Of a DNA stretch of 64,000 nt, positions 40,260 to 46,195 are shown piece by piece. The stretch spans positions 1,056,001 through 1,120,000 of the forward strand of contig CAVQEQ010000004.1 of NCBI GenBank assembly GCA_963711565.1, read 5' to 3'. This stretch comes from an uncultured delta proteobacterium. Lineage in GTDB: Bacteria; Desulfobacterota; Binatia; Binatales; Binataceae. The translations under genes and the position numbers were made by a program. A model generated the notes under the pieces. That model saw nothing but the letters and a program-made list of their open reading frames with translations. It had not been told where the DNA came from and searched no databases. Each line of letters opens with the position of its first letter. Position 1 is the stretch's first letter.

Positions 40260-42311
40260 ATGCGACGACCTTCGCTCTCGCTGCGCAGCGACCAATTCGA
40301 ATACGTCCAGTTGATTCTGATCGCAGTGACCGTCGGCATCCTCGCAGCGCTCGGAAATCTTGGCTTTCGCCAACTGATCGAATTTTTCTCGTGGCTGTTT
40401 CGTGTCGTCGAGTGGAGCGCGCTCGGAATCGGCCTCGGTGGAGCGCATCGCGCGCTGATTCCCGTGATCCTCTTGAGCGGCGGCGTCGCGATTCTGCTGC
40501 TTGACCGGATTTTTCCCGGAGACGTGCTCGGTTACGGTTTTCCGAATTTCCTGGAGATGGTGAACCTCGGCACCGCGCGCCTCAAGCGTCGCTGGATTTT
40601 CGTCAAGGCTGCCGGCGCCGCGATTTCACTAGGCGCAGGCGCGTCGGTCGGACGTGAAGGCCCGATCGCGCAAGTGGGAGGTGCGATCGGCTCGACGGTC
40701 GCACAGCTCCGAAAGCTGTCGCCCGATCGCGCCAAGGTGCTGGTCGCGGCCGGCGCGGGCGCGGGTATCGCGACGACCTTCAACGCGCCCATCGGCGGCC
40801 TGATGTTCGCGCAGGAAATCGTCCTGCTCGGCCACACCGAAATCGCCAATCTCACCTTGCTGATCATCGCGACTTTCACCGCCGTGATCACCTCACGCGC
40901 GATCGTCGGCAACGCCTCTGTCTTCGTGGTGCCCGAATTTGTCCTGCGCAGCTACTGGGAGATGGCGACGTATGCGCTCATGGGCGCCGGGCTCGGCGTT
41001 CTCGCCGCCGGCTACATCCGGTTCTTCAACGCAACCGAGGCGTGGTTTCGCCGGCTGAATCTCCCGATTTGGGTCAAGCTCGAGGTGGGACTTGCGGTGG
41101 TGGGCGTGATCGCGATCTGGCTCCCGCAAAATCTGTCCGACGGATACCCGGTGATCAACGGCGCGATGGCGGGTGAGTTCGGCATCGGGATGCTGGCAGC
41201 GATGACCTGCGCGAAATTCTTCGCCAGCAGCGTGTCGCTCGGATGCGGCGCGCCGGGCGGCTCCTTCGGCCCGACGTTTTTCATCGGCACGATGGCGGGC
41301 GGCTTGTTCCAGCGCGTATCGGCGATGGCGATTCCGCATCTGACCGGCCCGCGCGGATCGTACGCGCTGGTCGGGCTCGGCGCGTTTTTGGCCGGGACCA
41401 CGCATGCACCGCTGACGGCGCTGTTCCTGCTCTGGGAGATGACGCACAGCGACACTATCGCGTTGCCTTCGATGATCGCGACCATCACGGCGCTGGTCGT
41501 CGCCCGCGCGATCGAAACCGAATCCATCGACGAGTTCCGCCTCGCGCGCCAGGGTAAGACGCTGCAAATAGGCAGCGAGCGGCTGGCGCTCACTCTCATA
41601 CCGGTGAGCGCAGTCGTGACCCGGAACGTCACGATCGTGAGCGAGAACACTTCCTTGTCGGAGGTGCTCCGCACCGCCGGCGAGACCGCACAGTCCACGT
41701 TGCCAGTAGTCAACAGTGACGGCGAACTCGCCGGGACGATCGTTGTGCGAGATTTGTTGACCATGATCAGTGGAGGACAGGAGCTCGGCCCGCTCGTCAA
41801 CGCATTCGACATCTGCAATGCGCATGGTCCGACAGTGTCGCTCGATGCGAACCTCGACGAGGCGAGTCAGTTGATGGAGCATGATGGCCTCGATGAGATT
41901 CCGGTGATCGACCGCGCCACGCGGCGGTTCCTCGGCCTCGTCACCAGCCGGCAAGTCGCGCAAGCGCTGAACCGCGTGACGGTTTCTCTCTCGACGCTGG
42001 CGACGCGCGACCCGAACATTTATTGGGCAACCGGTTATCGCGTGACGCGCGTTTCGGTTCCCGCCAACGCGGCGGGAAAGACCGTGCGCCAACTCGACGC
42101 CCGCGCCCGCTTCAGCGTCACAGTGCTGGCCGTTCAGGACGCGGGCAACCCGCAGGGTGAATTTACGCCGATCTCGCCCGATCGCCCGCTGAAAGCAGGC
42201 GACGAGCTGATAGCGGCGGGGCGTCCACAAGACATCCGGCAGTTCACGCACGAGTTGGAGAACGCGGTGGCGGTCGCCGCTTCGGCTCAGGTTGGCTCGA
42301 AGAAGGTATAG
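40260..42311 (+). CDS. CLC chloride channel family protein with CBS pair and TrkA-C domain
   Basis: GREGP, FNAPIGG, GGSFGP; C-terminal CBS domains and GKTVRQLD..TVLAV..PLKAGDEL. Confidence 0.9.
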   Translation: MRRPSLSLRSDQFEYVQLILIAVTVGILAALGNLGFRQLIEFFSWLFRVVEWSALGIGLGGAHRALIPVILLSGGVAILLLDRIFPGDVLGYGFPNFLEMVNLGTARLKRRWIFVKAAGAAISLGAGASVGREGPIAQVGGAIGSTVAQLRKLSPDRAKVLVAAGAGAGIATTFNAPIGGLMFAQEIVLLGHTEIANLTLLIIATFTAVITSRAIVGNASVFVVPEFVLRSYWEMATYALMGAGLGVLAAGYIRFFNATEAWFRRLNLPIWVKLEVGLAVVGVIAIWLPQNLSDGYPVINGAMAGEFGIGMLAAMTCAKFFASSVSLGCGAPGGSFGPTFFIGTMAGGLFQRVSAMAIPHLTGPRGSYALVGLGAFLAGTTHAPLTALFLLWEMTHSDTIALPSMIATITALVVARAIETESIDEFRLARQGKTLQIGSERLALTLIPVSAVVTRNVTIVSENTSLSEVLRTAGETAQSTLPVVNSDGELAGTIVVRDLLTMISGGQELGPLVNAFDICNAHGPTVSLDANLDEASQLMEHDGLDEIPVIDRATRRFLGLVTSRQVAQALNRVTVSLSTLATRDPNIYWATGYRVTRVSVPANAAGKTVRQLDARARFSVTVLAVQDAGNPQGEFTPISPDRPLKAGDELIAAGRPQDIRQFTHELENAVAVAASAQVGSKKV

Positions 42312-42943
42312 GGGCGCGCGCGTCCGGCGCGGATTTCCGCGCACATCTGCTCGACCGTCTTGACCTCGCGCTCGAACTCCGTCGCGACTGTCATGAACCA
42401 TTTCGCCGTCGCGAAATGCGCGTCGCTGCCCCCGACCGCCGTCAGCCCGAGCTTCAGCGCCGCGTCTTCTGCGCGCCGATTCTCCTCGGCTGAGTTCTGG
42501 CCGTTCAGCACTTCGACCGCGCCGAGCGCCGCGCCGTGACGGCTCAGTAGCGCGTCGAGCCGCGACCCATAGCCGGAGTCGCGAAACGGATGCGCCGGTA
42601 TTGCGACGCCGCCCTCATGATGCAGGACTTCGATCAGGCTGTCGCTTTTGAGCATCCGCGCCGTCAGATCGAATCGCCGCGTCACTTCGTCGTTCACGCC
42701 GAACAGGAGCAGATGACCAAGGTCGGTGTCGGTCTCGATTCCTTTGAAGATTGCGATTTCAAATCGCTCCGCGAGTTCCGCGTACAGCCGTCCGACTTCG
42801 CCGTCACCGGGGAACAGGCGATGCTCGGTGAAGCAAATCGCGCCGAGTGCGCGGCCGGAGCGCTTCACGAATTCGAGATACTGCTCCGGCGCGACGTTCG
42901 AGTCGGCGGAAAGCCTGGTGTGGACGTGCAGATCGGCGATCAT
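42287..42943 (-). CDS. PHP domain metallophosphoesterase
   Basis: DLHVHT, TEH, AHPFR, GGSDAH. Confidence 0.9.
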   Translation of the reverse strand: MIADLHVHTRLSADSNVAPEQYLEFVKRSGRALGAICFTEHRLFPGDGEVGRLYAELAERFEIAIFKGIETDTDLGHLLLFGVNDEVTRRFDLTARMLKSDSLIEVLHHEGGVAIPAHPFRDSGYGSRLDALLSRHGAALGAVEVLNGQNSAEENRRAEDAALKLGLTAVGGSDAHFATAKWFMTVATEFEREVKTVEQMCAEIRAGRARPYTFFEPT

Positions 42944-42953
42944 GAAGTCGATG

Positions 42954-44471
42954 CTACGGCTCGGCGAAGGTATCGCGCACCTGGATGTGATCCTCGATCG
43001 AGAAAATTCGCGCGAACATGAAAATCTGCGTCTGCACCATCAGACGATCCGCTTCGGTCGGCACCGTGCCCCACAGGACGATCGTGTCGCCCTCCATTTT
43101 GAAATGCACCGAGCCGTAACCCTGCGCGTCGAGCGCCTGGCGCAGCGCGACCTCGCGCGGTGCAGTATGCGCTGGTTCGGGCGCATCGGGCGCGCCGCCA
43201 TCGGGCACCGACGGCACCGAGCCATAGTCGGGTCCGGGTCCGGTATCGCCGTCGGAAGGCTGCGGTTGCGATGAATGGAAAATCAGGTACCCGATCAGAA
43301 AAAATCCACCGACCACTAGCGTCATCAGTCGCGCGGGATGCCGCCGGCGGCGGCGCTCATGAAAAATCGGACCCGGAAAATCACCAGGTGAGGCAACGTC
43401 GTCGAGCACGATCGTCTGCGCCTCAGGCGTCGCGCCGCGATCCACCGCCGACAATCGTCCCGTCACGTCCGCGGCGCAGAACGAGCAGAAGTTCGAATCG
43501 GCCGGAATGCTACGGCCGCATCGCGGACACTCAGTATCGATCGCATTGCTCAGCATCGTCGGCGCCGACGCATGCTGCTCTCTCGACCTCATGCCGCCCA
43601 GCGGTAGTTTGAGTTGCGGACGCGACGACGCCACGGTTGACGAACTGCGCTGCGGTATCGTTATCGGCGTCCCCGACTTGATCGCCAGCAGCCGCTGCCT
43701 GAATTCCGCGGCGTCGGCCATGCGCAAGGCAACGTCGTACTTGAGCGCCTGATCGACCAGCTCGCACAGCGCGGGAGTGATGTCAGGGCAGAGCGAATGC
43801 AACGGTGGAAAACTGAACGGCGGTTCGAGCGCGGGGTCACGGCCCGACAGCGCGTGATGCATCGTGGCGCCCAGGGCGTACAGGTCAGAGCGGAATTCGA
43901 CCTTGCCGCGATATTGCTCCGGCGGCGCGTAGCCCTGCGTACCGATCATCGTGGCGTTGCTGAGCGGCTGGAATAGTCGTGCGATTCCGAAGTCAATCAG
44001 CTTCACCTGCTCCGACGGCGTCAGCATCACGTTCGACGGCTTCAGGTCGCGATAGATAACCGGCGGTTCGAGGTTGTGCAGGTATTCGAGTGTGTCGAGC
44101 ACCTGCAGCGCCACGTCGGTCACCTCGCCCTCGGGCAGCTTGCCGCCCGCGCCTCTGAGTTTCTCTTCGAGCGTGATCCCGTCGATGAACTCCATGACGA
44201 GATAGTGATGGTTCTGGTCGCTGAAGCGATCGAACACGCGCGGGATATGTTCGTTGCTGAGTTGCGCCAGCATGTCGGCCTCACGCTGAAACGCGGCGAT
44301 GGCCTGCTTCTGCGTGTCGGGACTGGTGAAGCTGTCAACCATCTCGGCCAGCGCGCACGGCCGCGCCGCCAGCCGCAAGTCCTCGGCCAGGTAGACGAGC
44401 TTCATCCCGCCCCCGCCAAGCGGCTTCATCACGCGGTAACGTCCGCCGACGATTGTGTTGGGCGCAATCAT
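42954..44471 (-). CDS. Hanks-type Ser/Thr kinase with zinc ribbon, TM and C-terminal BON-like domain
   Basis: YRDLKPSN, DFG, GTQGYAPPEQ, DLYALG; CPRC..CSFC; TM; IVLWGTV..IEDHIQV. Confidence 0.9.
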   Translation of the reverse strand: MIAPNTIVGGRYRVMKPLGGGGMKLVYLAEDLRLAARPCALAEMVDSFTSPDTQKQAIAAFQREADMLAQLSNEHIPRVFDRFSDQNHHYLVMEFIDGITLEEKLRGAGGKLPEGEVTDVALQVLDTLEYLHNLEPPVIYRDLKPSNVMLTPSEQVKLIDFGIARLFQPLSNATMIGTQGYAPPEQYRGKVEFRSDLYALGATMHHALSGRDPALEPPFSFPPLHSLCPDITPALCELVDQALKYDVALRMADAAEFRQRLLAIKSGTPITIPQRSSSTVASSRPQLKLPLGGMRSREQHASAPTMLSNAIDTECPRCGRSIPADSNFCSFCAADVTGRLSAVDRGATPEAQTIVLDDVASPGDFPGPIFHERRRRRHPARLMTLVVGGFFLIGYLIFHSSQPQPSDGDTGPGPDYGSVPSVPDGGAPDAPEPAHTAPREVALRQALDAQGYGSVHFKMEGDTIVLWGTVPTEADRLMVQTQIFMFARIFSIEDHIQVRDTFAEP

Positions 44472-44532: not shown

Positions 44533-44871
44533 TCATCGCGCGATCCTGTCTTCGCGGAGCGTGTCGGAGAAGGCGGCGTTTGCAGCGCATATGAGATGAA
44601 TCAAGACGCCGAACGGTGCGCCCATCTCGTACGCCATCGACACGCCGAAAAACCACAAAATTCCCTTGAACGGTCTGCCGCGGTAGATATGGCCGACGCC
44701 CGGGACGATGCTCAACACGAGCGCCAGCACCGGGTTGAATCCGTTTCTGTGCAACAGCGGGAACCGGGTGACCGGCGCGCCGCACGATTTGCAGAAACTC
44801 GCCTCGGCGACCACGATCGGCGCACCGCATCGCGAACAGAACCTCGGCTTTTCGAAGTCCGCTTCAGCCAC
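44533..44871 (-). CDS. Zinc-ribbon membrane protein (TM2-like)
   Basis: FCSRCG..FCKSCG; NPVLALVLSIVPGVGHIY.G. Confidence 0.8.
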   Translation of the reverse strand: MAEADFEKPRFCSRCGAPIVVAEASFCKSCGAPVTRFPLLHRNGFNPVLALVLSIVPGVGHIYRGRPFKGILWFFGVSMAYEMGAPFGVLIHLICAANAAFSDTLREDRIAR

Positions 44872-46195
44872 GGAAAGTAAACTGCGCGTCGCCGACCCGG
44901 ATGATTTCGCCGTCGCCGACGCGCGTCGGCTCGGTCACGCGCCGACTGCCGACGAACGTCCCGTTCTGGCTGTTGAGGTCGCGCACCACGAACGTGCTGT
45001 TGGAATTCTCGATGCTCGCGTGATGCCGTGAGACCGACGAGTGGCTGACGACGATTTCGTTGTCGAGCGCGCGCCCGATCCGCGTAACCGAGCCGGTGTG
45101 GACGGGGTAGGGCTGCCCCGACGCGTCGATCAAGCTCGGCCCGTCAACCTTGACGTTCGCCCCTGCCAGCCGCGTGGCGATGTGCGCGGGATTCACCGCA
45201 TCCGCCGCCAGCGACGCCTGTTGCCGCGCGGCCGTCGAGGTTCCGCGCAGATGGAACATCATCTCGTAGCCGCCGATATTGACTCGATCGCCGTCGTGCA
45301 GGTCAACGCTTTCGATTCGCTTGCCGTTGACAAAGGTGCCTTCCTGCACCGCGAGATTCCTGATCACGTAATCGGCCCCGCGTCGTTCAATCACCGCGTG
45401 CCGCTGCTGCACCGAGGGATCGCCGAACAGGCCGACCGGATTTTCCTCGGCGCGCCCAATCGTCGCGCGCGCTCCCTCGATCCGGTACTGGCGTCCGCGC
45501 AGCCGTCCCTGCTCGACCGTGACCCACGCGGCCTTGGTCAGCTCCTGCACGAGTCCAATGAACAATCCAATCGCTAGGCCGGTGACCGCTTCGCCGAAGA
45601 AGCGCGATGCCAGTCCGCCGCCGACGATTGCGCCGATCAAATCGAACGCGATTCCGCCGACCGCGCCGCCGAGCAGTCCGCCCACAGCGCCCTTGGGCAC
45701 GTTATCCATCGTGAGAGTCGCCAAACCCACGCCAGCGCCCACCAGCGCTCCGTCGATTGCCCATCCCAGCAGCCGCGCGATGACGAGAGTTATGACCGAA
45801 CCCGAAACCAGCTGGCCATCCGGGTTGAAGCCGACGCCGCCCGCCTGCAGGACAGCGTTGAATACGTAGTTTCCGAGATAAGTGGAGAGAAACGAGAGCG
45901 CAAAACAGATCGCGAAGCCGCGCATGAAACGCCGCTGCGCCTCCGGCGTCAAGCGAACGTCTGACGTATCCACGGCCGTGATGAACGCGCCAATCGCACC
46001 CGCGGCTATCGCCGCCGACAGGTAGTACGCAATCGTATCGCCGGTCGTCTGCGCCTCGCCAAGGTGAGAGTTATGCGATGCCAGCTCGACCGGCAGCCAT
46101 CCGATCGCGCCGCCACACAGGCCGGCCAGAGCTTTGAACGTCAGTTCGCGCCGGTTAAGAGATTCGCTTTTGAGTAGAGCTAGAGGTGAATCCAC
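44864..46195 (-). CDS. Multi-TM protein with two C-terminal FHA domains
   Basis: Gly-rich TM helices; IGR..RHA..GTFVNG and IGR..SVSRHHA..SQNGTFV. Confidence 0.88.
   Translation of the reverse strand: MDSPLALLKSESLNRRELTFKALAGLCGGAIGWLPVELASHNSHLGEAQTTGDTIAYYLSAAIAAGAIGAFITAVDTSDVRLTPEAQRRFMRGFAICFALSFLSTYLGNYVFNAVLQAGGVGFNPDGQLVSGSVITLVIARLLGWAIDGALVGAGVGLATLTMDNVPKGAVGGLLGGAVGGIAFDLIGAIVGGGLASRFFGEAVTGLAIGLFIGLVQELTKAAWVTVEQGRLRGRQYRIEGARATIGRAEENPVGLFGDPSVQQRHAVIERRGADYVIRNLAVQEGTFVNGKRIESVDLHDGDRVNIGGYEMMFHLRGTSTAARQQASLAADAVNPAHIATRLAGANVKVDGPSLIDASGQPYPVHTGSVTRIGRALDNEIVVSHSSVSRHHASIENSNSTFVVRDLNSQNGTFVGSRRVTEPTRVGDGEIIRVGDAQFTFRG

Follow-up and report, generated by a model that had tools for sequence, protein, structure and literature searches.

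The window, namely the whole stretch of 64,000 nucleotides that was analysed, encodes a membrane Hanks-type Ser/Thr kinase whose architecture consists of a kinase domain, a zinc ribbon, one membrane helix, a Pro-rich linker and a BON-like domain (Table 1). The 505-aa protein matched the Pkinase profile of Pfam (PF00069) with an E-value of 8e-35, and belongs to the RD kinases. Of the catalytic residues expected in a Hanks-type kinase, the protein has the Glu of alphaC, the Asp of HRD, the Lys and Asn of the catalytic loop, the Asp of DFG and the APE motif, and lacks the beta3 lysine. A first-pass annotation, made from the letters alone, had reported a Lys in place of the third glycine of the loop and an Ala at the beta3 position, with the alphaC Glu, YRDLKPSN, DFG and APPE motifs intact; both codons were confirmed and each motif was located in the translation of the ORF. 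Among the 47 clade representatives, Thr174 is kept in 44 and Thr178 in 43, and the membrane helix was found in 103 of 111 full-length homologues.

Table 1. Features of the kinase gene and its neighbours, in positions of the window
Feature	Position	Strand	Basis or remark
Membrane Hanks-type Ser/Thr kinase gene	42954..44471	-	ORF, 505 aa
Glycine loop LGGGGMKLVY, residues 18-27	44391-44420	-	Translation
Lys24 codon AAG, third glycine of the GxGxxG loop	44400..44402	-	Translation; invariant in 118/118 homologues
Ala42 codon GCC, beta3 (VAIK) lysine site	44346..44348	-	CALAEM = residues 39-44; alignment, model
alphaC Glu64 (FQREA)	44280..44282	-	Translation; 47/47 clade representatives
Catalytic loop YRDLKPSN (Asp142, Lys144, Asn147)	44031..44054	-	Translation, conservation
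DFG motif, Phe161 where WNK1 has Leu369	43986..43994	-	Translation, conservation
APPE motif	43917-43928	-	Translation
Activation-segment Thr174 to Thr178, likely phosphoacceptors	43938..43952	-	Role by analogy with PknB-type kinases
Cytoplasmic zinc ribbon, residues 315-335	43467..43529	-	Pfam Zn_Ribbon_1, E 4e-5, just below cut-off
Single membrane helix, residues 380-398	43278..43334	-	Hydropathy 1.95; Arg cluster precedes
Extracytoplasmic BON-like domain, residues about 438-498	42978..43160	-	Model; weak
Upstream gene of a double-FHA membrane protein, a likely phospho-Thr partner	44864..46195	-	Pfam FHA x2
Small zinc-ribbon/DUF6677 membrane protein, between FHA gene and kinase	44533..44871	-	18/20 loci
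PHP-family metallo-phosphoesterase, starts 10 bases past the kinase stop	42287..42943	-	13/20 loci; possible operon member
CLC-CBS-TrkA_C gene, convergent neighbour, not judged part of the system	40260..42311	+	15/20 loci

The residue register was fixed by alignment to StkP (GRGGMADVY ... VAVKVL), and two canonical paralogues encoded by this genome (GGGGMGMVY ... CAIKEM) gave an identical one. In the AlphaFold2 model (pLDDT 92), beta2 spans residues 24-31, beta3 37-45 and alphaC 51-69, with Lys24 at the start of beta2 and Ala42 within beta3. The relocation would have been undone by another lysine at the beta3 site, and there is none in the modelled strand 37-45, while K16 and K55 are variable among homologues. 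The closest folds to the model were PknB, PknA and Stk1 (Z 28-29), with Z 29.3 and rmsd 2.1 for PknB 5u94, and WNK1 5w7t gave Z 27.4 at 24% identity. Prediction of a homodimer with ATP and Mg scored 0.37 against a mark of 0.42 and yielded no contacts.

In the best 120 homologues (57-100% identity, the named ones mostly from Ca. Binatus or other Binataceae), the pair K24 and A42 is present wherever the site is covered (118 sequences, the other two being truncated), and DFG in all 120. The DNA pattern of the pair was recovered from 148 of the 151 genomes of the order, all of which belong to one family, and from 96/96 high-quality Binataceae genomes, and the reversed-pattern control returned 0; the swapped kinase is a core gene of Binataceae. 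In a search of 301 genomes drawn from the phylum, nothing passed E 1e-55 except the genome studied, three members of the family and a single match of 42% identity, and the swapped clade was thus not found outside Binataceae in the genomes searched. Of the 20 distant swapped clusters looked up, 5 carried an organism name, and all 5 were Binataceae. The K24 codon reads AAG in 27 and AAA in 22 of 49 orthologue loci, and the 50th locus is also K/A; its variation is synonymous only.

The loop lysine and the beta3 lysine are mutually exclusive across relatives, which bears out the covariation that the first-pass annotation had asked for. Among 150 cluster representatives, collected with the first 100 residues as a query that favours swapped matches, 83 carry the loop Lys and none of these a beta3 Lys (beta3 is Ala in 80, and Ser, Leu and Ile in one each), 64 carry the beta3 Lys and none of these a loop Lys, one has neither, and the site is uncovered in two. 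Domains gathered independently of the pattern and clustered at 72% gave 68 swapped, 84 canonical, 3 with neither and 0 with both, and both lysines were seen in 1 of 503 unclustered domains, a degenerate one without HRD. The rest of the catalytic apparatus is retained at canonical rates, with E64 in 47, D142 in 45, K144 in 47, N147 in 47 and D160 in 46 of the 47 clade representatives, compared with 78, 75, 80, 80 and 75 for the same residues in 85 canonical domains, although these covariation and conservation counts come from kin rather than from independent events.

When species genomes were scanned for the pattern, at least 117 stretches matched, and among the matches listed 86 belong to this clade, 20 to a distant clade and 11 to non-kinase sequences. 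In the matches listed, the second clade shares 32-39% identity with the present kinase, and its 16 titled members are Solirubrobacterales or other Actinomycetota. Its members have the architecture zinc ribbon-kinase-AAA_16-TPR, mostly with a class III cyclase. Of its 120 matches 98 were parsed, comprising 93 with loop Lys, 2 with loop Arg and 3 unrelated canonical proteins. The clade also occurs in other Binatia families, where the 14 best loci have loop Lys in 13 and beta3 Lys in none, and it is widespread in metagenomes, as judged from a pattern-selected set (the metagenome pattern search gave 123 stretches). Several side observations were made in this clade: one Binatia genome (G482) holds about ten strong matches to it; in its sediment branch, Anaerolineae was named for 1 of 10 clusters; and the members P0289, P0319 and L174 have a loop Arg, or a Lys one residue earlier, as possible variants or decay.

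For the phylogeny, 54 rows were chosen from 185 clustered domains, and the trait columns and their neighbours were dropped. The Binataceae clade is nested among canonical kinases in a group with 99% support, adjoining the canonical paralogue of its own genome, and the tree requires two trait changes. A single origin of the Binataceae clade and the second clade was rejected (p-AU 0.0015, for groups named after a first tree). In the phylum Verrucomicrobiota, 251 genomes yielded nine matches. Each is a kinase that combines a loop Lys with beta3 Ala, HxD and DWG, and together they form a swapped non-RD clade (HLD/HFD). The tree with six Verrucomicrobiota kinases added requires three changes, and joining them to the Binataceae clade was not rejected (p-AU 0.061). 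These tests and the tree changes show two origins of the swap in bacteria, and a third origin is likely. The nesting among canonical bacterial kinases, in trees that hold no WNK sequence, together with the 24% identity to WNK1, argues that the swapped kinase descends from canonical bacterial kinases and shares no common descent of the trait with the WNKs.

The loop Lys nevertheless occupies the WNK position, since WNK1 reads GRGSFK and VAWC (with HRD and DLG; Table 1 of PMC2639636, in the part of the source available) where the bacterial kinase reads GGGGMK and CALA. The WNK kinases (WNK1 PDB 5w7t and 6cn9, WNK3 5o21) resemble it in the Lys at the last loop position, the small beta3 residue, the alphaC Glu, the HRD and the fold. 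WNK1 has Cys at beta3 and DLG, whereas the swapped bacterial kinase has Ala and DFG; the latter is moreover a membrane receptor with a zinc ribbon and a BON-like domain, with no evidence of chloride control. PknB, PknA, StkP and Stk1 provide the best sequence and fold matches and share with it the loop Met, the gatekeeper Met, the RD motif, one membrane helix and an FHA partner gene, but they keep the beta3 Lys. PASTA repeats are missing from the swapped kinase (NF033483, 190 bits against a cut-off of 450). Judged by sequence comparison, the swapped kinase is real, conserved and convergent with the WNKs without being a member of that group.

The closest functional parallel is an engineered PKA that carries the same two substitutions, beta3 Lys to Ala and loop Gly to Lys. 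According to the available part of PMC5130182, this double mutant (K72A/G55K) showed about 400% of wild-type activity, and the loop Lys in K/M and K/H backgrounds gave about 2%. The natural pair in the present kinase is likewise K/A plus G/K, and beta3 remains small in both clades, being Ala in 45 of 47 representatives of the Binataceae clade and Ala, Ser or Gly in 53/53 of the second; this small residue matches the rescue of PKA in the K/A background and not in the K/M or K/H background. The difference is that the PKA mutant is a laboratory eukaryotic kinase, and the bacterial pair is a natural state fixed across a family. Because the matching double mutant, albeit on a eukaryotic scaffold, is reported to be about 4-fold active, the gene is likely to encode an active PknB-type membrane Ser/Thr kinase in which the loop Lys stands in for the beta3 Lys. 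The claim of a convergent, compensated WNK-type site instead of decay was upheld by the mutual exclusion, the kept catalytic residues, the canonical nesting and this PKA rescue.

An ATP-binding pseudokinase, catalytically weak or dead, would alternatively scaffold the FHA protein or activate a canonical paralogue, with Lys24 serving only in nucleotide binding or structure. Loss of the beta3 Lys is a standard pseudokinase mark (PMC12599244, in the part available), and the genome encodes two close canonical paralogues (about 54% identity), as an allosteric pseudokinase would require. The bSTK atlas (10.1101/2025.01.12.632604) and a review (PMC12599244) describe, in their available parts, seven pseudokinase families (ActPs1-3, GLW, CP1, DYD and DLHK) that resemble the present kinase in having no VAIK Lys, and mention WNK only as a eukaryotic example. 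By these descriptions, the seven families also lose HRD/DFG residues or the alphaC Glu, or carry Arg or bulky residues at beta3, and a loop Lys is reported in none; the swapped clade is not marked by such extra losses, whether of the alphaC Glu or of the Asp in HRD or DFG. As its other catalytic residues are conserved as well as those of canonical domains, the identical double change rescues PKA and the swap recurs with intact motifs in an independent clade, a pseudokinase is considered unlikely.

Other kinases are known to replace the beta3 Lys. CAK-chloro (PMC1821047) and POMK (PMC13519141), as far as the available parts of both sources go, have lost it and obtain the charge from another residue. 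CAK-chloro differs in being a prokaryotic non-Hanks kinase with Met at beta3, Ala at the G55 position and Phe at that of the alphaC Glu, and POMK in being a eukaryotic sugar kinase with DLD that is not Hanks-type. The available part of PMC13686953 makes no mention of bacteria. No published description of a bacterial Hanks kinase with a relocated lysine was found in full-text searches of the openly accessible literature.

The gene context was compared in 20 wide loci from other genera. The FHA gene adjoins the kinase gene in 20/20 and is the tightest partner; the zinc-ribbon/DUF6677 protein is fused to the kinase in the homologue P0122. In 15 of the loci a CLC gene occurs within 7 kb, compared with 16 for a CoA-transferase and 15 for a hydrolase. 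The PHP gene and the CLC gene converge and share their last 25 bases (42287-42311). A promoter scan gave one site against 1.0 expected and terminators numbered 8 against 3.9 +/- 2.3, counts that are uninformative. Word shares in nine soil metatranscriptomes were 0.04-0.06, and contigs of relatives from four runs cover the kinase gene, a coverage that does not show transcription. As a separate observation, the genes flanking the kinase between 36000 and 52500 of the window look catabolic, three of them being Pfam-confirmed; by motif they are presumably a Rieske oxygenase, TetR regulators, an aminotransferase III, a hydrolase, a CoA-transferase III, luciferase-like monooxygenases and an enoyl-CoA hydratase.

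Kinase paralogues in Binataceae carry TPR, Sel1, PQQ-propeller, FGE-sulfatase, SPOR, BamE-like or PDZ domains. The genome studied encodes a second swapped kinase (GEGADKQVY ... RAVAVM) at C4:788096-790111 (+), which comes after two FHA genes; Rhs/YD-repeat-like ORFs then follow it, possibly marking a mobile or secretion-linked locus. Elsewhere in this genome (C1:1001673-1007844, +), two canonical sister kinases, one with an FHA domain, flank a degenerate kinase-phosphatase fusion, whose phosphatase part we take from its motifs to be PP2C-like; the locus offers built-in controls for the swapped enzyme. On one Binataceae contig (L082:1188-3232), two divergent swapped kinases stand side by side with an FHA gene.

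PknB-type kinases respond to an envelope cue by autophosphorylation and FHA docking. In the present kinase, Lys24 is predicted to extend into the space freed at Ala42 and, like Lys233 of WNK1, to hold the phosphates of ATP, and the enzyme so built would be capable of catalysis. Autophosphorylation at Thr174/Thr178 may follow when the BON-like domain outside the membrane reads an envelope cue, and the co-encoded FHA protein would dock on the resulting phospho-threonines.

The assignment of the BON-like domain itself is weakly supported. The model of the C-terminal domain (pLDDT 82) shows the order helix-strand-strand-helix-strand and best matched OsmY, CdsD and DolP at E 0.001-0.01 (OsmY: E 1.1e-3, TM 0.69), but the C-terminus of the kinase gave no Pfam BON (PF04972) match, and sub-threshold BON matches (E 0.0007-0.01) were obtained in 4 of 9 full-length orthologues scanned.

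It was also suggested by the first-pass annotation that this domain and a CLC gene ending about 650 bp away hint at osmotic or anion sensing, if not by coincidence. The distance was measured as 642 bases from the CLC end to the kinase stop, with the PHP gene in between, and the hint itself was not supported. In such a scheme, an active WNK-type chloride or osmotic sensor would bind an anion at the beta3 site, read envelope stress through the BON-like domain and target CLC; in WNK, chloride may bind at a site that overlaps with that of the canonical lysine, as a review notes (PMC7606576), CLC lies close by in most loci, and OsmY is the top, though weak, match of the C-terminal model. In WNK1, chloride is bound at the Gly370/Leu371 amides with Leu369, and the L369F variant is insensitive to chloride (PMC7606576 and PMC13397483, in their available parts), whereas the bacterial kinases have DFG throughout, in 120/120. 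The CLC gene is on the opposite strand, is missing from 5 of 20 loci and is kept no better than the CoA-transferase or hydrolase genes; no CLC gene was seen in six neighbourhoods of paralogues, of which four spanned just 5 kb. The swapped paralogues lack BON and bear unrelated sensor domains, and CdsD and DolP are about equal to OsmY as matches to the C-terminal fold. The idea of chloride sensing is weak given DFG in place of DLG, the ordinary CLC synteny and these sensor domains, and a chloride or osmotic sensor of this kind is very improbable. Both the CLC linkage and the BON-like domain as an osmosensor were rejected as weak on synteny, paralogue domains and fold matches. The kinase is probably not a chloride sensor of the WNK kind, and the CLC linkage is probably genomic inertia. 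The boldest version, with at least three bacterial origins and a Binataceae kinase that is a true WNK analogue, its pocket binding chloride or sensing water activity despite DFG and its BON-like sensor linked to CLC, would be a long shot.

A last alternative is that the swap stems from an error in sequencing or assembly, from a lesion in one strain, or from an alignment out of register that hides another beta3 lysine. In its favour, the DNA comes from a metagenome-assembled genome, and the lineage is uncultured. This reading is refuted by the pair in 118/118 homologues and by its DNA pattern in 148/151 genomes, and a modelled beta3 strand without Lys beside the variable K16 and K55 also speaks against it; the view of the first-pass annotation that error was unlikely was justified.

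The lysine swap is likely to characterise the kinase domain of this lineage as another way of building the same active site, and not as an adaptation for sensing chloride. The relocated lysine, which has been treated as a eukaryotic WNK signature, is a repeatable solution of the kinase fold, as its fixed, independent bacterial cases show, and under the three-residue rule entire clades of bacterial kinases that are likely active would be classed as pseudokinases. The Binataceae kinase is the natural counterpart of K72A/G55K, the hyperactive PKA mutant, and its canonical sister paralogues in the same genome make the effect of the swap on activity, activation-loop dependence and inhibitor binding directly testable. 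The same comparison could show whether lysine relocation without DLG creates anion sensitivity, which bears on why the WNKs moved their lysine. For Binataceae, a family of uncultured soil bacteria, the kinase is a core membrane signalling enzyme.
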